64,000 nucleotides of DNA from Patescibacteria group bacterium. Its GTDB lineage: Bacteria > Patescibacteriota > Patescibacteriia > Patescibacteriales > UBA12465. The stretch's first letter is position 1. Every line of letters starts with the position of its first letter. This document shows positions 6,212 to 55,613 of the stretch, piece after piece. The stretch lies in assembly GCA_041656935.1 (NCBI GenBank), contig JBBACQ010000003.1:27358-91357 (forward strand), written 5' to 3'. Position numbers and translations under genes: made by a program. The notes under the pieces were generated by a model. It was not told the DNA's origin and did no database searches. It saw only the letters and a list, made by a program, of their open reading frames with translations.

Positions 6212-7063
6212 TTATATAATTTTTTCCTTCTTAAATGACTGAAAAAGGTCGAGCCAATTATCTAAACTTAATTGCTCAGGCCTAATTTTAGGCTCTAAAT
6301 TATTTTTTCGGATAATCTCTTCAATTAAATCCACTTTTTTATTAAATCCAGTTGATAAATTATTTTTAAGCATTTTTCTTTTAGCGCTAAAAGCAACTCT
6401 TAACAACTTAAAAAAATTCTTCTCTGCTTGATAATCAGCTAATAATTTTTTATTAGGAATAATTTTAATAACAGCACTATCAACTTTCGGCGAAGGATAA
6501 AAATTTTCCTTTTTTACTTCAAACAACATTTCTACCTGAGAATAAAATTGGACTGATAAAGATAATAAACTCATTTTAGGTGGACGAGCAATTATTCTAT
6601 CAACAACTTCTTTTTGCAACATTAAAATCATCCGTTCCGGTTTATTAGCCAAGCTTAAAAATTTTCTTAAAAAAATAGAGGTGATATTATAAGGTAAATT
6701 AGAAACAATTTTGTAAGGACTTATTTTAGAAAAATTTTCTCCCTTAGCCTGCAAAATGTCTTTATTAAAAATTTTAATATTTTTAACTAGCTGACTTTTT
6801 ATTAAAATATCTAAAACTTGAACAATTTTGGGATCCACCTCAACAGCCAAAACTTTTTTAACTTTTTTAGCTAACTTAAAAGTTAAGAACCCCAATCCCG
6901 GCCCAACTTCTAAGACGGTATCTTCTGGCTGGAGGTCGGCGAATTGAATTATTTTATCATACACTTCTTCATTAATTAAAAAATTTTGCCCCTTTGTTTT
7001 TTGGGGCTTAATATTATACATTTTACACAAATCTAATGTTTGTTGAATAATATTTTCAGACAT
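6212..7063 (-). CDS. rsmA: 16S rRNA (adenine1518/1519-N6)-dimethyltransferase
   Basis: KGQNFLINEEV...VLEVGPGLGFLT SAM-binding motif; length is typical of KsgA/RsmA. Confidence 0.9.
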   Translation of the reverse strand: MSENIIQQTLDLCKMYNIKPQKTKGQNFLINEEVYDKIIQFADLQPEDTVLEVGPGLGFLTFKLAKKVKKVLAVEVDPKIVQVLDILIKSQLVKNIKIFNKDILQAKGENFSKISPYKIVSNLPYNITSIFLRKFLSLANKPERMILMLQKEVVDRIIARPPKMSLLSLSVQFYSQVEMLFEVKKENFYPSPKVDSAVIKIIPNKKLLADYQAEKNFFKLLRVAFSAKRKMLKNNLSTGFNKKVDLIEEIIRKNNLEPKIRPEQLSLDNWLDLFQSFKKEKII

Positions 7064-7118
7064 AATTATTTAATAAACTACTTTTTATGGCTTAGCATAG
7101 GAAATTAAACTTTTTGTT

Positions 7119-7291
7119 TGCCAGCTTTTCAAAATTTTAGGTTAGACATGAGTGTAAAAAGCGTGTAAAATTTAGCTGTTTGAGGATGAGCGGAGCTCAT
7201 CCGAGTTCTAAATTTTACTAGCTTTTATAACGAATGTTCTAAAATTTTGATCTGCTGGCGATTTTTGGGCCACTTTTTATAAAAAAGTGGC
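7119..7291 (-). repeat. Long palindromic MITE/REP-like element, copy 1 (about 150-nt imperfect hairpin bounded by TGCCAGC...GCTGGCGA, plus a terminal hairpin GCCACTTTTT/AAAAAGTGGC)
   Basis: Homologous in reverse complement to 9930-10109. Shared blocks include aaaaatcgccagc, tcaaaattt, tataaaa.ctag.aaaattt, ctcaaaca, aaattttacacg and gctggca. The apical hairpins differ in sequence but both still pair. Confidence 0.7.
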
Positions 7292-7400
7292 ATTAATAAA
7301 TACTTTCTCCAAATTCTTTTTAATGTCCACGAGAAAAAATAATAACAATTATCCTAAATCTATTAAAAATCCTGAACATCTTACTAATAAAAATATCACC

Positions 7401-7649
7401 TTATTTTTCCCTCTCCATGTCTATTGCTTTAACTGGGCATTCTTCGGCGCATAAACCACAACCCTTACAATAATCATAATTAATCTTAGCTTTTTTCTGA
7501 CCTTTTATTGTTGTTAATTCGGCGGCACTATCGGGACAAATTTTAGCACAAATCCCACAAGCAATACATTTTTCTAAATTTATTTTTGGTCGATGAGATC
7601 TCCATGAACCAGTTTTATTTTTAGAAGAAGTGTTTGGCTTTACATTCAT
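7401..7649 (-). CDS. porD: Pyruvate/2-oxoacid:ferredoxin oxidoreductase delta subunit (2x[4Fe-4S] ferredoxin)
   Basis: Two CxxCxxCxxxCP motifs (CIACGICAKICP, CKGCGLCAEECP). Adjacent to the gamma subunit gene. Confidence 0.85.
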   Translation of the reverse strand: MNVKPNTSSKNKTGSWRSHRPKINLEKCIACGICAKICPDSAAELTTIKGQKKAKINYDYCKGCGLCAEECPVKAIDMEREK

Positions 7650-7677
7650 ATTTTTAGATTTACTATTTATTCAAAAT

Positions 7678-8265
7678 TTAATTAACAGCACTTTTTTTAA
7701 TGGCTAAAATATTTTTAGCAATAATCTCTGGGCCTTTTTCAGAAAACTTTTCTTTAACCGCCTTAATACTACTCTCAACTTTTAATAATCCCGGAACCTT
7801 ACTTAAGGCCCCTAAAACTGAGGTATTCACCATATTTTTCCCAAAAATTTCCAAAGCAATTCGGGTAGCATCTATTAAAAAAATATTTTTTGTTTCTAAG
7901 CCAACTGGTAATTTGGTAACCTTTTTTATTTCTCTAAAAACCTCATCTAATTTGAGATTAGAATTTATAATTATTTGAGTATCGCCCTTAATACCTGAAA
8001 AAATATCAGCTTTTCCTAATAAAGAAAAATCTAAAATTATTAAAATATCAGGGTTATAAACATGTTCTCGGGTTAAAATTTCTTGGCTGGAAATTCTAAC
8101 AAAAGATTGAATCGGAGCTCCGCTTCTCTCTACTCCAAAATGAGGAAAGGCTTGAACAATTTTTCCATCATTAAAAAAAGCAATGGCTAAAATTTCAGCC
8201 ATAGCTACTACTCCTTGGCCTCCACGACCATGAATCCTAATTTCCTTATTGATTATTTTTTTCAT
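7678..8265 (-). CDS. porG: Pyruvate/2-oxoacid:ferredoxin oxidoreductase gamma subunit
   Basis: IRIHGRGGQGVVAMAEILA...HFGVERSGAP signature of the POR gamma family. Confidence 0.85.
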   Translation of the reverse strand: MKKIINKEIRIHGRGGQGVVAMAEILAIAFFNDGKIVQAFPHFGVERSGAPIQSFVRISSQEILTREHVYNPDILIILDFSLLGKADIFSGIKGDTQIIINSNLKLDEVFREIKKVTKLPVGLETKNIFLIDATRIALEIFGKNMVNTSVLGALSKVPGLLKVESSIKAVKEKFSEKGPEIIAKNILAIKKSAVN

Positions 8266-8304
8266 AATTTATTTAATATTTTTACTTTTAATTTTAAAAT
8301 AAAA

Positions 8305-9081
8305 CTAATTACTATTTTTTAAAGCTTTATCTAAAAATTCTGACCAAAAAGTAAAAGGAATAGCCCCTTCTCCTACTTTAACTCCATTTATAAACCAAGT
8401 TGGCGTTCCAGCAATTTGTAAAAAAACACCATCGCTTTTATCTTTGGCAATATTAGAAATATATTTTTTTTCATCTATACAATTATAAAACTCATCGGTT
8501 TCAACTATACCAACTTCTTCCACTAAAGCTCCAATTCCTAAATTATATAATTCATCTTGCCAGGCAAATAGCTTGTAAAACATTGGCCAATATTTATCCT
8601 GCTCTCCGGCACACCGAGCTACTAAAGCTAAATTTTCTGATTCCTCACTAATAACTGGAAAATCTCTAACAATTATTTTCACCTGCTCGCCATATTTAAT
8701 AGCTAAAGAGCTAATGATTGGTAGGCTTTCTTTACAAATCGGACAAGAAAAGTCAGAAAAAACTACAATAGTTAAAACTGGATTTTCAGCTCCTAGGAAA
8801 TAAGAATTAGTTCCTTCAACTATTTTAATATTAGCTGGATTATAATCAGAATAAACACTCTTAACTTCATCAGAAGATTTTAAAGACTTTCTAACCAAGG
8901 CCATCTCCACTGGATTACTAATTAAATGAATAATTAAAAAAATAAAAGAAAGACTCACTAACAAAAGAGAGGCTAATATTACCAATAACAAAACGCCCCA
9001 CCATTTTTTATGCCAACGAGCTGATAGCTTTTTACTCAATCCTTTAGCTCTTAAATATTTTATTCTTTCTTCTAAATTCAT
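8305..9081 (-). CDS. Membrane-anchored DsbA-family thiol:disulfide oxidoreductase
   Basis: N-terminal TM helix. Thioredoxin fold with a CPIC active site (VVFSDFSCPICKE). Confidence 0.8.
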   Translation of the reverse strand: MNLEERIKYLRAKGLSKKLSARWHKKWWGVLLLVILASLLLVSLSFIFLIIHLISNPVEMALVRKSLKSSDEVKSVYSDYNPANIKIVEGTNSYFLGAENPVLTIVVFSDFSCPICKESLPIISSLAIKYGEQVKIIVRDFPVISEESENLALVARCAGEQDKYWPMFYKLFAWQDELYNLGIGALVEEVGIVETDEFYNCIDEKKYISNIAKDKSDGVFLQIAGTPTWFINGVKVGEGAIPFTFWSEFLDKALKNSN

Positions 9082-9157
9082 TGATTAATTGTCTAATATA
9101 TTATATGATAATATTAGCATAAAAAGATGAAATATAAAAATAAAGGTTTAGAATCTT

Positions 9158-9922
9158 ATGAAAATTATATCTTGGAACATTAATGGAATCAGGGCGGTTG
9201 TTAAAAAGGGCTTTAAGGATTTTTTAGAAAAAGAAAGCCCTGATATTTTAGTTTTACAGGAAATTAAAATATCAGATGATAAAAAAAACAAGGAAGAATT
9301 TGATTTTAGTGATTATGAAGAATTTTGGAATTCAGCTCAACGACCTGGTTATAGCGGAACATTAATATTATATAAAAAAGAATTAAAAGTGCTAAAAAAA
9401 GAAAATGGTTTAAAAATTGATAAATTTGATAATGAGGGCCGAGTTCAAACCCTAGAATTAAAGGATTTTTACCTAATTAATACTTATTTCCCCAATTCTA
9501 ATCACGAGTTGAGCCGATTAGGCTACAAATTAGATTTTAATAATGAATTAGAAAAATACTTAAAAAAATTAGACAAAAAGAAACCAGTTATTTTAACTGG
9601 GGATCTAAATGTTGCCCATCAAGAAATTGATTTAGCTCGTCCCAAAGAGAATATTGGCAATCCCGGATTTACTTATGAAGAAAGAAATTGGCTAACTAAT
9701 TTTCTAAAAGATGATTTTATTGACACCTTTAGACATCTACATCCAAAAAAAATAAAATATTCTTGGTGGAGTTTTCGTTCTGGCGCCAGAATTAAAAACA
9801 TTGGCTGGAGAATTGATTATTTTTGTGTCTCAAAAAAATTAATAAAAAAAATAGAGCGGGCTGATATTTTAGACCAAATCACTGGTTCAGACCATGCTCC
9901 AATTGTTTTAGAGATAAAATAA
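9158..9922 (+). CDS. xth: Exodeoxyribonuclease III (AP endonuclease)
   Basis: MKIISWNINGIRA...LQEIK...GDLNVAH...GSDHAP motifs of the ExoIII/APE family. Confidence 0.9.
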   Translation: MKIISWNINGIRAVVKKGFKDFLEKESPDILVLQEIKISDDKKNKEEFDFSDYEEFWNSAQRPGYSGTLILYKKELKVLKKENGLKIDKFDNEGRVQTLELKDFYLINTYFPNSNHELSRLGYKLDFNNELEKYLKKLDKKKPVILTGDLNVAHQEIDLARPKENIGNPGFTYEERNWLTNFLKDDFIDTFRHLHPKKIKYSWWSFRSGARIKNIGWRIDYFCVSKKLIKKIERADILDQITGSDHAPIVLEIK

Positions 9923-9929
9923 TCTTTAT

Positions 9930-10109
9930 GCAACTTTTTTAGAAAAAGTTGCGCAAAAATCGCCAGCTATTCAAAATTTCAGGGCACTCGCTATAAAACC
10001 TAGCAAAATTTTAAACTCGCTCGTCACGCTTAGCGTGACTTCGCTCAAACAATAAAATTTTACACGGTTTTTACGCTCCTACCTATTCTGAAATTTTTCA
10101 AGGCTGGCA
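9930..10109 (+). repeat. Long palindromic MITE/REP-like element, copy 2 (hairpin GCAACTTTTT/AAAAAGTTGC, then CGCCAGC...GCTGGCA palindrome)
   Basis: Reverse-complement homolog of 7119-7291. The terminal hairpin shows a compensatory change (GCCAC/GTGGC versus GCAAC/GTTGC). Confidence 0.7.
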
Positions 10110-10185
10110 AATTAAAGAACCAAAATTCTTAAACGTTCGTAGAAAAAATAAAAAATTAATTTTAAAAATAAAAATAATAAAAAAT

Positions 10186-11319
10186 ATGTCTAAAAATAAT
10201 AAAGCACAAATATTAGAGGGGTCTCGGGCGATTGCCTTAACTATAAAAAACATCCAACCCGATGTTATTTCTGCTTACCCAATTACTCCCCAAACCCATA
10301 TTGTCGAAGATTTAGCTAAATTTAAAGCTGATGGCCTAGCTAATTATGAATATATTCGATCGGAAAGTGAATTTTCAGCAGCTTCTATTGTTCTCGGTGC
10401 CTCCGCCAAAGGAGCTCGCGCTTATAGCGCTACCAGTTCTCAAGGGCTACTCTTAATGACCGAAGTAATCTACAATATTTCCGGAATGCGTTTGCCAATA
10501 GTTATGACTTTAGCTAATCGAGCCATTTCCGCCCCCATTAATATTTGGAATGACCACCAAGACGCCATGGCTATTCGTGACGCCGGTTGGATTATGTTAT
10601 TCGCCGAAAATAATCAAGAGGCTGTTTGGCAACATCTTTTAGCTTTTAAAATCGCTGAAAAATTATCCCTACCGGTCATGGTAAATATTGATGGTTTTAT
10701 TTTAACTCACTGCTATGAACCCGTTTATATCCCTGAAAAAAAACTAATCAAAAAGTTTTTACCAAAATACAAACCACTTAAGGGAAAATATTTAGATTCT
10801 AAAAATCCTATTACTATGGGGGCTTTTATGACCCCTCAACATTATCAAGAATACCGAAAAAAAATAGCTGATGATTTTACTACAGCTATAGAAGAAATTA
10901 AAACTGAACATCAAATTTTACAAAAACTTACCAAAGCAAAAATGATTAAAGGAGTTATTGATAATGGTTTAATAGAATATTCTGGACCCAAAAACCCCCA
11001 GACCATTATAATAGCTATGGGTTCGGTAATTGGAACTATAAAATCAGCCATCGCTTCGATAACGACAACTAAAAATAATAGTGTGGGAGTCTTAAAAATA
11101 AAATCTTACCGTCCTTTTCCAGCCAAGGAAATATATGATATAATAAAAAGAGCTAAAAACTTAATAGTCTTAGAAAAAGCTATTAGCCCAGGAAATTTTA
11201 GCCCCTTATTTTTAGATATAAAATCAATAAGTTCCGACCGCCAAAAGATAAAAAGTTTTATTAGCGGATTAGGCGGACGCGATATCACCGAAAAAGAAAT
11301 TTTAAAGATTATAAAATAA
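10186..11319 (+). CDS. porA: Pyruvate:ferredoxin oxidoreductase alpha subunit
   Basis: AYPITPQT...SESEFSAAS...ATSSQGL motifs of the POR alpha family. Confidence 0.9.
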   Translation: MSKNNKAQILEGSRAIALTIKNIQPDVISAYPITPQTHIVEDLAKFKADGLANYEYIRSESEFSAASIVLGASAKGARAYSATSSQGLLLMTEVIYNISGMRLPIVMTLANRAISAPINIWNDHQDAMAIRDAGWIMLFAENNQEAVWQHLLAFKIAEKLSLPVMVNIDGFILTHCYEPVYIPEKKLIKKFLPKYKPLKGKYLDSKNPITMGAFMTPQHYQEYRKKIADDFTTAIEEIKTEHQILQKLTKAKMIKGVIDNGLIEYSGPKNPQTIIIAMGSVIGTIKSAIASITTTKNNSVGVLKIKSYRPFPAKEIYDIIKRAKNLIVLEKAISPGNFSPLFLDIKSISSDRQKIKSFISGLGGRDITEKEILKIIK

Positions 11320-11484: not shown

Positions 11485-12348
11485 ATGAAAAATAATAGAA
11501 ACATCACTCTTAAGGCCATTATTCTAATATTTTTTTTATTAATATTTTTTGTTCCCATTAATAAAACTTTAGCCAGTGGAATAGAATTTGTCCCTCAAGT
11601 TACCATCCCGGGATCTAATTTTATTAAAGGACAAAACACTACTATAGAAGGCGGAACCAAGGCCTTGGCTATCTATGTTAAATCTATTTATAATTACTTA
11701 TTAGCCATAGTTGGATTGCTCGCTGCTATTGTTTTAATGGTTTCGGGTGTTATTTGGTTAACCGCTGGAGGAAATACTGAAAAAATCGGCCAAGCTAAAG
11801 GCTGGATGACTGGTAGTTTAACTGGTTTAATTTTAATGCTAACTTCCTACGTAATTTTAAGAACGATAAATCCTTATTTGGTTGATTTTAGAACAAACGA
11901 TGTTGATAATATTGACCGCCGAGAAAAAAACACTGTTTGCGTTAAATATAATGAAGGGGAAAGACAAGGAGAAACAAAAGATGGTAAATTATTTATAACC
12001 AGAACCGCCGCCGAAATAGCCGAGAATGAAAAACTTAAAGAAGAAGGAAAAACTATTCAAAATGTAGCCAAAGAGTGCTTAGAAGATGAAGTTTGTGCTA
12101 AAATTAAATATGAAAATCCTAATGATATTTTTGAATGTACTAAAAAAAATAAAATTAGATGTTGCCAATATGAAAAAATGGATTCACTCGGAATAACTTG
12201 CAAAACAATAACTAACGGAGAAAGTTGCCCTGATCCTAAAGAATCATATCCTGATATTAAATTAAAATATATATACGAAGAAGAGATTTGTGATTTGCAA
12301 TTTAATAATTCTGGAAGAAATGCCTGTGTCCCAGATGGAAAAATGTAA
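11485..12348 (+). CDS. Cys-rich membrane protein with a TrbC/VirB2-like (type IV secretion pilin-like) two-helix domain
   Basis: Signal/anchor, then AIVGLLAAIVLMVSGVIWLTAGGNTEKIGQAKGWMTGSLTGLILMLTSYVIL, then a Cys-rich C-terminal extension. Paralogous core to the ORF at 13236-14618. Confidence 0.6.
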   Translation: MKNNRNITLKAIILIFFLLIFFVPINKTLASGIEFVPQVTIPGSNFIKGQNTTIEGGTKALAIYVKSIYNYLLAIVGLLAAIVLMVSGVIWLTAGGNTEKIGQAKGWMTGSLTGLILMLTSYVILRTINPYLVDFRTNDVDNIDRREKNTVCVKYNEGERQGETKDGKLFITRTAAEIAENEKLKEEGKTIQNVAKECLEDEVCAKIKYENPNDIFECTKKNKIRCCQYEKMDSLGITCKTITNGESCPDPKESYPDIKLKYIYEEEICDLQFNNSGRNACVPDGKM

Positions 12349-12377: not shown

Positions 12378-13211
12378 ATGAATAAAAAAAAACTAATTTC
12401 ATCCGGTCACAACGCCTGTGCCGGTTGCGGACAATTATCAGCCGTGCAATCGGTAATGCGGGCTCTAGGAGATGATGTTATTATCGCCAATGCTACTGGT
12501 TGTCTAGAAGTAACCACCACTCCCTATCCTCAAAGTGCTTGGGGAGTCCCTTGGATACACTCTCTATTTGAAAATCCTTCGGCTGTAGCTACTGGAATAT
12601 CAGCTACCCTAAAAAAACAAAAAAATCTCAAAACTAAAGTTGTAGTTATGGCTGGCGACGGTGGAACTTTTGATATTGGTTTAGGATTAATCAGCGGAAT
12701 GTGGGAAAGAAAAGAAAATATTTTATATATTTGTTATGATACTGAAAGTTATTCTAATACTGGTTACCAAGCTTCGGGGGCCACTCCTTATGGAGCTTCC
12801 ACCAGTACCTCACCTAAGGGAAGTTGTCCTCCCCAAAAAACACTTTGTAATACTATCGGAAATCAATATCAAAAAAAGGATATGATAAAAATTGCTCTAG
12901 CCCATGATGTCCCTTACGTTGCTCAAACTACAGCTGGCTATCCCGACGATATTTATAATAAAGTGAAAAAAGGTAAAGAAATAAATGGTCCAGCTTATAT
13001 TCAAATTTTATCGCCTTGTGTTCCCGGTTGGGGAATAAAAACTAATGAAGCTGTTAAAATTGGAAAATTAGCCGTTCAAAGTGATTTATATCCTTTATTA
13101 GAATATGAAAATGGAATATTAACAAACAAAAGTGAAAAGCCAAATAACTTTTCCGAAGTAAAAAAAGAATATTTACAAAAACAAAAAAGATTCCAACATT
13201 TAATAAAATAA
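12378..13211 (+). CDS. porB: Pyruvate:ferredoxin oxidoreductase beta subunit (TPP-binding)
   Basis: GHNACAGCGQ...GDGGTFDIG motifs. Confidence 0.9.
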   Translation: MNKKKLISSGHNACAGCGQLSAVQSVMRALGDDVIIANATGCLEVTTTPYPQSAWGVPWIHSLFENPSAVATGISATLKKQKNLKTKVVVMAGDGGTFDIGLGLISGMWERKENILYICYDTESYSNTGYQASGATPYGASTSTSPKGSCPPQKTLCNTIGNQYQKKDMIKIALAHDVPYVAQTTAGYPDDIYNKVKKGKEINGPAYIQILSPCVPGWGIKTNEAVKIGKLAVQSDLYPLLEYENGILTNKSEKPNNFSEVKKEYLQKQKRFQHLIK

Positions 13212-15052: not shown

Positions 15053-16807
15053 TTATTTCTTAATATCAATAATTTTTAATTGAATATCCTTCCGTCCATT
15101 GAACTCATTAAACTCTAAAGTATAAACAACATCAACATTATCACCAATATTCAAATGCCTATATCTTTCACTACCGCCAAAAGAAATTCCCCAAAAACTT
15201 TTCATATCCTTATCATCATGATTTAAAAATTTTATTTTTATATGTTGACTATCAAAACCCATTTTAGAGACATCAATAATTTTAACATTAAAAGTAGCAA
15301 ATTTGGGAATCGGATTACTTTGCCCAAAAGGGCTCATTTTCTCAACTAACTCTACTAACTCATCATCAATATTGCTAAAATTAATCTCACAATCAACTTT
15401 TATTTTTGGCAATAACGAAGTTTGAGCTAATTTATCTTTAGCCATTTTTTCTATACTTTTTGCAAAAAGAGAAAACTCTTCCTCAGATAAAATAGAGAAA
15501 CCTCCAGCCATGGGATGCCCACCATATTTGTACAAAAATTTTTTATTATCTTCTAGAGCCTCGACCAAATTAAATTCTTCAATGCTACGACCACTCCCCT
15601 TATACACCCATTGGGATTGACCCTGATCATCAGTTACCTGTTCTTCTGTCTTCACAACGACTAAAACTGGACGATAATATCTTTCGGTTAATTTTCCGGC
15701 TACCAATCCAATAACCCCTTCATTCCAAGAATTACTAGAAAAATCTTTAACAATAATTATTTCGGGTAAATTTTCTTTATCAATTTGACTTTCAGCCATC
15801 GACATTACTTCTTCAGTTATTTTTTGTCTTTCTAAATTTTTATTATTCAAATCTCGGGCTAATTTTTCGGCCTCTCCTTGGTCCTTGCTAATTAATAAAT
15901 TCAAAGCTGAATTAGCATGTTTAATGCGACTAGCAGCGTTAAGTCGAGGACCAATTTGAAATCCAACATTAAAAGCATTTAATTCTTTAACCGCCCCAGT
16001 CACTTTTATTAATTCCAACAACCCAATTCTTTTAGTATTGTTTAAAATTTTTAAACCCTCTTGAACTACTAAACGATTTTCTCCCACCAAGGGAACCATA
16101 TCAGTCACAGTTCCGATGGCCACTAAATCTAAACTACGAGAAATTAATAAATCTTTATACTCTTCTGGAATTTTTGATTTTTTTACTAAAGCTGAAACTA
16201 ATTTAAAAGCCACTCCCACCCCAGCCAAAAATCGAAAAGGATAGCCAGAAGAAAAATCAGCCGGATTAATAATCAAACAATCTGGTAAATCTTCTTTTTT
16301 CTCTGGATAAGCATGGTGATCGGTGACAATAATATCTAAACCTAAACTTTTAGCATATTCAACCTCTTCTTTCCCTCGGATTCCATTATCAACGGTGACT
16401 ATTAAACTAAAACCTCTATTTTTAATTTCATCAATCGCTGTTCTGTTTAAACCATAACCCTCACTAACTCTATCCGGCAGATAAAAATCAACCTCAGCCT
16501 TAAAAACTTGAAAAGCCTCGTAAAGCAAAGCTGAAGAGGTTACCCCGTCGGCATCATAATCCCCATAAATCATTATTTTATTTTTCTCTTTAATATGTTT
16601 TATTACCAAATCAACCGCTGACTCCATATTATTAAAAAGAAAAGGATCTAAAAATTCAGCCTTGTCATCTAACAAGAACCATCTCAAATCATCCGATAAT
16701 TTTATATCTCGATTATACAAAAGTTGAAGAATAAAAGGATTAAAATCTTTATTCTCCTCTTTAAAATCATTTGGCATCGAAGGATATATTTGCCATATTT
16801 TATCCAT
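15053..16807 (-). CDS. recJ: Single-stranded-DNA-specific exonuclease RecJ
   Basis: DHH family motifs (GDYDADGV, IVTDHH); size and domain order are typical. Confidence 0.9.
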   Translation of the reverse strand: MDKIWQIYPSMPNDFKEENKDFNPFILQLLYNRDIKLSDDLRWFLLDDKAEFLDPFLFNNMESAVDLVIKHIKEKNKIMIYGDYDADGVTSSALLYEAFQVFKAEVDFYLPDRVSEGYGLNRTAIDEIKNRGFSLIVTVDNGIRGKEEVEYAKSLGLDIIVTDHHAYPEKKEDLPDCLIINPADFSSGYPFRFLAGVGVAFKLVSALVKKSKIPEEYKDLLISRSLDLVAIGTVTDMVPLVGENRLVVQEGLKILNNTKRIGLLELIKVTGAVKELNAFNVGFQIGPRLNAASRIKHANSALNLLISKDQGEAEKLARDLNNKNLERQKITEEVMSMAESQIDKENLPEIIIVKDFSSNSWNEGVIGLVAGKLTERYYRPVLVVVKTEEQVTDDQGQSQWVYKGSGRSIEEFNLVEALEDNKKFLYKYGGHPMAGGFSILSEEEFSLFAKSIEKMAKDKLAQTSLLPKIKVDCEINFSNIDDELVELVEKMSPFGQSNPIPKFATFNVKIIDVSKMGFDSQHIKIKFLNHDDKDMKSFWGISFGGSERYRHLNIGDNVDVVYTLEFNEFNGRKDIQLKIIDIKK

Positions 16808-55052: not shown

Positions 55053-55126
55053 GGGCCTTTAGCTCAGTTGGCTAGAGCACCTGCTTTGCAAGCAGGGGGT
55101 CAAGGGTTCGAGTCCCTTAAGGTCCA
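55053..55126 (+). tRNA. tRNA-Ala (anticodon UGC)
   Basis: Acceptor GGGCCTT/AAGGTCC with G3:U70, anticodon loop TTTGCAA, T arm AAGGG-TTCGAGT-CCCTT. Terminator ACCAACCCAAA-CTGC-TTTGGGTTGGT+T6 at 55135-55166. Confidence 0.92.
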
Positions 55127-55180
55127 CTGAAAAAACCAACCCAAACTGCTTTGGGTTGGTTTTTTTATTATGACAAAATT

Positions 55181-55338
55181 AAGGGACTCGAAAGCCGGAG
55201 CGATGTGTGAATTGCCGAAGGCAATGAACACCGCGAGGCGGGGTCGCGAGTTCTTAGTGAGCGTAGTCGCGTTAGCGCGAAGCGCTTTTACGCGACAAAC
55301 GAACTTAGAAACTCGTGACCGAGTCCCTTAAGGTCCAC
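55181..55338 (+). repeat. tRNA-linked G+C-rich structured module, Ala copy, ending in a 19-nt copy of the tRNA-Ala 3' end
   Basis: AAGGGAC-TC-GAAAGCCGGAGCGATGTGTGA-ATTGCCGAAGGCAAT-GAACACCGCGAGGC-...CTTAGTGAGCG...ACTTAG...GTGAC-CGAGTCCCTTAAGGTCCAC. The last 19 nt (55320-55338) equal native 55109-55127. Followed by terminator AACAGAC-GAAA-GTCTGTT+T (55349-55370). Confidence 0.6.
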
Positions 55339-55613
55339 AGACTAAAAGAACAGACGAAAGTCTGTTTTTTGCTTTATTTATAAATAGCTGGCGACTTTAT
55401 CAGTAATGGGTATACTATATAGTGGCAGTCAGAAAACTAGATGAGGGCGGGAGATAACTTGTAAGGCTCGGCTTTTCTAAATTCTAATCCCATACAGCAG
55501 AATAATAAAAACAAAAAACAGGCATAAAACCTGTCTCTTTATATCGTCTCCGAGGGTGGGAGAACATTAAAGCCCGTTTAGTTTACCCCACCGCATAGCT
55601 CATTAACAACTTT

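Follow-up and report, generated by a model that had tools for sequence, protein, structure and literature searches.

The ERIC (or IRU) sequences of enterobacteria and the Correia elements (CREE or NEMIS) of Neisseria are imperfect palindromes dispersed in transcribed intergenic DNA, where they occur in both orientations. The genomes of Patescibacteria (also called Candidate Phyla Radiation, CPR) are small and tightly packed, and their non-coding and mobile DNA is little known. The present study concerns a 64,000-nucleotide stretch of the genome of a Patescibacteria group bacterium (contig JBBACQ010000003.1, positions 27,358 to 91,357), hereafter the window, in which two inverted copies of a double-hairpin repeat bracket a part of the gene cluster of the pyruvate:ferredoxin oxidoreductase (por). 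With a probability that we put at roughly 0.55, the two sequences represent independent insertions of a small, non-coding and evolutionarily mobile repeat, similar in kind to miniature inverted-repeat transposable elements (MITEs), ERIC or Correia elements. The family to which they belong is new and, as far as sampled, confined to Falkowbacteria-like Patescibacteria. The two copies and their parts are as follows:

7112 to 7296, better-folding strand +: left double-hairpin copy; covariance-model score 205-208 bits, fold z-score against shuffles -10.
7120 to 7259, + strand: long imperfect hairpin of the left copy, closed by GCCAGC...GCTGGC and followed by GATTTTTG at 7260-7267.
7269 to 7291: left copy, short hairpin with the sequence GCCAC-T5-ATA-A6-GTGGC; covariation in helices 8 and 9.
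9925 to 10116, better-folding strand -: right copy; covariance-model score 196-231 bits, fold z-score against shuffles -8.
9930 to 9952: short hairpin of the right copy, GCAAC...GTTGC, starting 7 nt past the stop codon of xth.
9962 to 10108, - strand: right copy, long hairpin; the CAAAAA ahead of it on the + strand (9954-9959) corresponds to U5 after the hairpin on the - strand.

The repeat finder returned two pairs of inverted arms, one of 95 nt (7202-7296 and 9925-10019, 82% complementary) and one of 73 nt (7112-7184 and 10044-10116, 78%), and the homology between the left and right copies was found to be collinear across about 190 nt by pairwise alignment. Identity between the copies is in the range of 75-85%, with 77% in a structure-guided alignment and a longest identical run of 14 nt, and a BLASTN search of either one against the whole window had its partner as the sole match (E=6e-31). 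Their folding energies are close (-73.8 kcal/mol for the left copy and -74.6 kcal/mol for the right one) and the base of the long hairpin, GCCAGC...GCTGGC, is common to both. The short hairpins differ by a compensated change from C-G to A-T (GCCAC/GTGGC on the left, GCAAC/GTTGC on the right), and the apical stems of the long hairpins, GATGAGC/GCTCATC and GTCACGC/GCGTGAC, are unrelated in sequence with a perfect pairing in each. An earlier description made from the letters of the window (hereafter the sequence-only reading) had reported an inverted homologous pair with two hairpins in each member, a compensatory change in the short hairpins and apical stems that differ and still pair; repeat finding, alignment and folding agree with it on all of these. 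It had also signalled a 12-nt match to the terminus of the repeat at 55383-55394. This match is at the level expected by chance (about 0.26 occurrences when up to one mismatch is allowed), and a covariance-model search of the window with filters off located no element there, the best score beyond the two copies being 19 bits (E=0.04).

A covariance model was built from three copies and run across all the retrieved loci, which are designated below by L and a number. A pattern search of species-representative genomes (GCCAGC-N(115-145)-GCTGGCGATTTTTG) gave mostly chance matches in GC-rich genomes and, among the matches listed, one true copy, located in L067 (HGW-Falkowbacteria-1) between a rubrerythrin gene and the gene of tRNA-Trp. 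A scan of metagenome contigs with an invariant 19-mer of the element added five copies on four contigs, bringing the total to nine full copies at no fewer than six distinct sites, in at least five genomes or contigs. These sites are the junctions porD to ksgA, xth to porA (in two genomes), rubrerythrin to tRNA-Trp, prfB to a pilin-like gene and pth to a pilin-like gene, together with three further leaders of pilin-like genes. The copy density is low: the 64 kb of the window contain two copies, and about 40 kb of sequence from the L133 genome contain one. Two further copies, in L001 (1-62) and L008 (1-51), are cut off at contig ends; both of these short-read contigs start within the right-hand element, a little beyond the tip of the hairpin, which suggests that the element interrupts assemblies, whether because it is repeated or because it folds back. 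In L130, two copies lie 1.5 kb apart ahead of tandem paralogous pilin-like genes, and one of them (7858-8047, upstream to ~7790) carries an insertion of about 60 nt in the loop of the short hairpin and an extra G+C-rich hairpin.

Since copies were found elsewhere, the pair in the window is not a unique local duplication, and their dispersal in unrelated contexts supports the MITE or REP-like (repetitive extragenic palindromic) nature that the sequence-only reading had envisaged as an alternative. The REP sequences and the mosaic elements that they form (BIME) are nevertheless built on units of 20-40 nt, usually clustered and accompanied by a RAYT transposase, whereas the unit described here measures about 185-205 nt and is single. 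No Rfam family overlaps the element, either at gathering thresholds or at E<=10, and its identification as a 6S RNA, a riboswitch or a ribozyme was dropped for want of such a match. BLAST against phage genomes and plasmids gave no match to the element, and the one match obtained in a scan of viral contigs was attributed to chance. In the literature searched, no such element is described for Patescibacteria.

Along the host genes, the element comprises first a 10-bp hairpin whose inner pairs are A/T-rich, then the linker CAAAAA and finally an imperfect hairpin of about 60 bp. The latter comprises an invariant or nearly invariant middle helix (GUAAAA-SC-GUGUAAAAUUU and its partner), an internal loop that is conserved (UGUUUGAG/CGAGUU) and a tip whose sequence varies freely while always remaining paired, from a stem of 7 bp up to a two-tier insertion seen in L133. 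Among the internal loops, the largest measures 8x5 nt and lies beside an 8-bp tip, and no large central bubble is present. In the nine-copy alignment, 96.3% of the cells are in standard pairs and both sides have changed in 28 of the 61 pairs; the observed values were reached by none of 500 column shuffles for any of the five measures, and the proportion of paired cells falls to 36-52% when the partners are slid by 1-3 columns as a control. Variation affects all seven pairs of the tip helix and nine of the ten pairs of the short hairpin. A kink-turn was considered for the UGUUUGAG/CGAGUU loop and rejected by reasoning, as the flanking helices do not fit. Candidate sigma-70-like promoters occur inside the element on both strands because it is palindromic and A/T-rich, but their -35 positions covary as base pairs, and none was accepted; conservation is seen only for the external promoter of L172 and L176, described below.

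Several comparisons address the mobility of the element. The right copy of the window is 95.3% identical to that of L007, while the xth, porA, porG, porD and dsbA genes of the same two genomes are 65-78% identical, and 43-56% at third codon positions (54% as a single figure). Conversely, in L001, the closest relative of the window, nucleotide identity with the window is 97.0-97.7% for porA, for the gene after it and for the spacer that separates the two, whereas the visible part of the element is 90% identical and has lost about 32 nt, including the basal arm (the contig starts inside the element). Purifying selection is disfavoured because the copy is eroding in this closer relative. Occupancy varies, moreover, at three orthologous sites: xth to porA, porD to ksgA, and prfB to the pilin-like gene (L172 compared with L176). 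As far as can be judged from the sequences, this pattern favours a recent spread and turnover over an ancient inheritance. Upstream of the left copy, a promoter scan revealed a promoter-like site with an extended -10 (TTAATA-16-TGtTATTAT, 7366-7339, - strand), near which lies a stretch of about 20 nt (AGTATT...) also present in L133 and in the copies of pilin leaders. Because this stretch is common to several copies, the mobile unit may reach beyond the hairpins.

Each of the nine copies is flanked by co-directional genes, and the order is fixed, from the upstream stop codon to the short hairpin, CAAAAA, the long hairpin and the downstream start. The genes around the left copy of the window (porD and ksgA) are on the - strand and those around the right copy (xth and porA) on the + strand; as both obey the rule on opposite strands, the orientation follows transcription and not replication. 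The spacers that hold the two elements exceed the element length by 50-105 nt (7064-7111 and 7297-7400 on the left; 10117-10185 on the right). Five of the nine copies are located 16-64 nt upstream of the start codon of type IV pilin-like genes, whose proteins have an N-terminal methylation motif. In L172 (same locus as L133), a promoter conserved with the related L176, TTGTTA-16-TGcTATAAT, directly precedes the element, which starts a few bases past it, unrelated sequence being found at this place in L176. We infer from this arrangement that the host-sense strand is probably transcribed as a leader in L172.

Such a position raises the question of a host cis-acting leader RNA, that is, a module of the 5' untranslated region or of intercistronic RNA that would stabilise or regulate highly expressed mRNAs (pilin-like, porA, a tRNA) and would spread mainly by duplication or gene conversion with its target genes. 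The proximity of most copies to pilin-like start codons, the promoter of L172, the co-orientation of every copy with the downstream gene and the strong covariation around an invariant middle helix and internal loop are all consistent with this role. The downstream genes are, however, unrelated (ksgA, porA, tRNA-Trp, pilin-like), the element is dispensable at orthologous sites and eroding in L001, and both the G-U pairs and the folding energy favour the strand that is not in the mRNA. Taken together, these points make a leader function unlikely, without its being negligible.

The asymmetry between strands is itself consistent. U5 directly follows the long hairpin on the antisense strand of all nine copies, a feature absent from the host-gene strand; read as RNA, the antisense strand has 23 G-U cells (in 14 columns) against 6 A-C cells (in 6 columns), and it folds better by 2.4-18 kcal/mol in every copy. 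A mutational origin of the G-U excess was discarded by reasoning, as a C>T bias linked to transcription or replication should have produced it on the other strand. This asymmetry could be due to an independent small RNA gene, antisense to its neighbours, whose product would be the long hairpin, terminated at its own U5, while the short hairpin would shield it from convergent transcription; the TAAAAT sequence, invariant in the 5' arm of that strand, is a further point in its favour. On that strand, though, no conserved promoter is found upstream, the flanks differ between sites and the copies of pilin leaders leave just 16-25 nt between element and start codon, whereas the candidate -35 positions covary instead of being conserved. 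Such a gene also accords poorly with the patchy occurrence of the element and its erosion in L001, and we consider its existence rather improbable.

The bias could alternatively operate at the DNA level, the single-stranded hairpin being a substrate of recombination or transposition, as are the bottom strands of attC sites, the IS200/IS605 insertion sequences and the REP sequences with their RAYT proteins; the compensatory changes could then stem from templated correction of a quasi-palindrome and not from selection on RNA. The folding bias does favour the template strand of the host genes, the variable and always perfectly paired tip recalls the variable terminal structure of attC sites, and the patchy occurrence would be expected. 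But no integrase, HUH transposase or RAYT gene was seen adjoining any copy, the flanks are conserved housekeeping genes in fixed synteny and not cassettes, and, inside 3 kb of sequence, the left and right copies of the window point in opposite absolute directions, which shows an orientation that tracks transcription and not replication. An integron attC site proper was rejected, as there is no R-box consensus, integrase or cassette context. A substrate of this kind seems highly improbable.

The second question raised by the window is the relationship of the repeats to the organization of the por locus, whose gene identities were confirmed by Pfam:

6212 to 7063, - strand: ksgA/rsmA, rRNA adenine dimethylase (RrnaAD, E=6.5e-56), downstream of the left copy.
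7401 to 7649, - strand: porD, delta subunit, a 2x[4Fe-4S] ferredoxin.
7678 to 8265, - strand: porG, gamma subunit (POR, E=3e-38).
8305 to 9081, - strand: DsbA-like thioredoxin-fold protein.
9158 to 9922, + strand: xth, exonuclease III family.
7297 to 9924: segment with porD-porG-dsbA (-) and xth (+), inverted relative to the canonical order of L177 and L178.
10186 to 11319, + strand: porA, alpha subunit (POR_N, E=1.6e-71), downstream of the right copy.
11485 to 12348: T4SS_pilin-like gene between porA and porB.
12378 to 13211, + strand: porB, beta subunit, thiamine pyrophosphate-binding.

The window has a G+C content of 31%, and the closest homologues of its PorA are annotated as Patescibacteria or Candidatus Falkowbacteria. 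The por loci of eight relatives were retrieved through their PorA proteins. Six genomes, namely the window, L002, L007, L166, L168 and L170 (HGW-Falkowbacteria-1), have the split order, with porD-porG-dsbA on one strand and xth-porA-pilin-porB on the other. Conversely, two genomes at a greater distance, L177 (GCA_900089805.1) and L178 (Falkowbacteria CG11), display leuS(-) xth(-) followed by dsbA porG porD porA X porB(+), which is the canonical gamma-delta-alpha order and holds precisely the four-gene block in the opposite orientation. The breakpoints are the two junctions that carry the repeats in the window. A simulated flip of the bracketed segment yields xth(-), dsbA, porG, porD, the repeat and porA, in accordance with the geometry anticipated by the sequence-only reading, in which porG and porD come to lie directly upstream of porA on the same strand. 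Six proteins were concatenated (1337 ungapped columns) for a neighbour-joining tree, in which L177 and L178 are separated from the six split-order genomes in 500 of 500 bootstraps, with the topology (((window,(L002,L007)),L166),L168),L170. From the uninverted order in these two genomes and this split, it follows that the four-gene segment was inverted once, on a single branch, in the ancestor of the clade of the window; the inversion that had been suspected of splitting the por operon is thus substantiated by the synteny of relatives and by the tree.

The other part of that proposal, an inversion mediated by the repeats, is not supported. According to the covariance model, no element is present at either junction in L002, L166, L168 and L170, whose spacers (xth to porA, then porD to the next gene) measure 22/271, 6/9, 16/10 and 166/104 nt, respectively. 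The sequence-only reading had itself named the same split order without repeats as evidence against its mechanism, and this is the arrangement found in these four genomes. L007 has the right copy (9770-9961) and lacks the left one, its called spacer of 51 nt at the left junction being reduced to about 8 nt of truly intergenic sequence if the alignment to the ksgA start of the window is followed. The element is likewise absent from the uninverted L177 and L178, and relic inverted repeats were looked for at the L170 breakpoints without success. Parsimony on the tree requires about eight losses if the element was ancestrally present at both breakpoints, and about three events for a late gain. Homologous recombination needs about 20-30 bp or more of uninterrupted identity. 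The 14-nt run and 77% identity of the present window copies fall short of this, and these copies are unlikely to have been a recombining pair at the time of the inversion because they are now 4-5 times more diverged from each other than is the right copy from that of L007, the latter two being orthologues that separated shortly after that event.

The rival view, which makes the present copies, or those from which they directly descend, the agents of the inversion (through homologous recombination or through intramolecular replicative transposition) and supposes their later loss in most descendants, draws on the reality of the inversion, on the inverted orientation of the copies and on the location of the only two copies of the 64 kb at its breakpoints. 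It has against it the four inverted-order genomes without either copy, some with spacers of a few nucleotides, the missing left copy of L007, the number of losses required and the lack of relics or of an element in the uninverted genomes, whereas the divergence within the pair, compared with the similarity between the right copy and its L007 counterpart, indicates a pair older than the inversion or unrelated to it. We regard this view as very unlikely. On sequence grounds, the repeats look like later arrivals and not like the cause of the inversion. The left element arrived in the own lineage of the window, after the inversion; the right one may have been gained in the ancestor shared with L002 and L007, or on two separate occasions.

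The por locus presents other particularities. A T4SS_pilin-like gene parts porA from porB in the window and in L002, L007, L166, L168, L170 and L178, and a gene without Pfam match occupies this position in L177; such a gene between the alpha and beta subunits is an unusual, conserved interruption. The left junction differs among genomes in other respects as well: in L170 (4676-7087) and L177 (3234-5660), ksgA and the por block are parted by leuS, a radical-SAM gene and a hypothetical gene are found there in L002 (5084-7233), and no gene intervenes in the window, L007, L166 and L168.

Independent insertions of a mobile repeat therefore remain our preferred explanation of the two window sequences, with several observations that weigh against it. 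No transposase adjoins any of the copies, no clear terminal inverted repeats distinct from the hairpin are seen, and the comparison of filled and empty sites revealed no consistent target-site duplication, the junctions being A/T-rich. The GCCAGC/GCTGGC bases of the long hairpin are possible terminal repeats, which would, however, leave the short hairpin outside. The frequent location ahead of pilin-like genes hints at a host function as opposed to a purely selfish element, and it is the antisense strand that folds better, which is hard to square with the evidence for transcription of the sense strand. Both window copies lie precisely on the breakpoints, which has a naive chance of about 0.001 considering the 44 co-directional junctions. 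Finally, as the window and L007 have an element at the same site, either a target specificity or an inheritance followed by loss in L002 has to be assumed. Two of these points stay unexplained, the folding bias of the antisense strand and the coincidence with the breakpoints, for the latter of which local hopping or unusually permissive junctions made by the inversion could be responsible.

A scenario can be proposed for the orientation rule under mobile-repeat insertion. The long hairpin and U5 of the antisense strand, on which G-U pairs are tolerated, would resemble an intrinsic terminator, and insertions in the opposite orientation would then terminate host transcripts and be lost. The single orientation between co-directional genes in all the survivors would result from this purge of terminating insertions. 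In the surviving orientation, the element would be read through as a stable hairpin of the leader or intercistronic RNA, as a passenger, and it may affect the processing or stability of the mRNA, as ERIC and Correia elements do. A more speculative proposal, to which we give little credence at present, is that of a new class of self-contained structured RNA of Patescibacteria, with its functional strand antisense to the neighbours and its own U5 terminator, which would pass from genome to genome and home to particular operon junctions and pilin leaders. Its features would be the hairpin of about 60 bp, the invariant helix, the conserved G-A-rich internal loop and the free-varying tip. In a bolder version, an earlier generation of the element could have made the por inversion, the junctions having been re-colonised since.

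Other repeats were observed in the same genomes. In the window, the gene of tRNA-Ala (55053-55126) is directly followed by a perfect terminator-like hairpin (~55128-55167), past which a segment of about 150 nt is G+C-rich compared with the 31% of the window. The 3' end of the tRNA gene is directly repeated, GAGTCCCTTAAGGTCCAC being found at 55110-55127 and again at 55321-55338, where it closes the G+C-rich segment. The 55127-55345 region folds with -106 kcal/mol (z-score -9.9) and looks like a small element integrated or duplicated at the tRNA. A second G+C-rich palindromic repeat, GTCGCGT...ACGCGAC, is often found beside arms similar to GTCATTCC...GGAATGAC in the intergenic regions of these A/T-rich genomes; it occurs in the window at 55266-55296, in L130 at 7651-7681 and in L132 at 2637-2668, with similar hairpins in L178 (7750-7900), and is also present just upstream of two of the long-hairpin elements. 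Moreover, a TTAGGAT(C/A) motif is repeated in the leaders of pilin-like genes, fusA and other genes (L176 at 9790-9840 and 15580-15630; L132 at 2570-2610; window at ~7330-7345 and L172 at ~9940-9955, both as reverse complement), and it forms five tandem 9-mers (GGATCATTA) in L176.

This analysis defines, with a working covariance model, a covariation-supported and orientation-locked repeat family in Patescibacteria. It also describes a clean and datable inversion that split the operon of the pyruvate:ferredoxin oxidoreductase, a central enzyme in these organisms. Should the antisense bias stem from a genuine RNA, or should the elements be directed to newly formed operon junctions, the family would open a way to study how these reduced genomes rewire transcription following rearrangements; otherwise, it is an ordinary selfish repeat beside an inversion that is itself old and ordinary.

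Compared with known systems, the element resembles 6S RNA by its length of about 180 nt and its long irregular hairpin, but differs from it by the lack of a match to RF00013 or any other Rfam family and of a large central bubble, by its variable site occupancy and by one eroding copy. Like intrinsic (Rho-independent) terminators, it shows a hairpin of G+C-rich base with U5 immediately after it on the antisense strand of all nine copies, although its stem is of about 60 bp instead of 5-15 bp; on the host-gene strand the A-run precedes the hairpin, hence the element is no terminator for the host genes. The inverted homologous copies at the ends of a segment inverted with respect to outgroups recall the inversions mediated by insertion sequences or other repeats, whereas most genomes sharing this inversion are without the repeats, and too great a divergence separates the copies. 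The resemblance to bacterial MITEs is broader, the element being small, non-coding, hairpin-forming, patchy and much closer in sequence from genome to genome than is the DNA around it; it is, however, palindromic over its whole length and not at its termini alone, with no target-site duplication or parent insertion sequence identified. With the ERIC and Correia elements it has no sequence similarity, and it is distinguished from them by the extra short hairpin on one side that makes it asymmetrical, by the single orientation of its nine copies, by a far lower copy density and by a host in the phylum Patescibacteria. It shares with them, conversely, an imperfect palindrome (roughly 100-190 nt in this comparison) placed in transcribed intergenic DNA and giving a long RNA hairpin, a presence or absence that varies at orthologous sites, and two orientations that fold unequally owing to G-U pairs.

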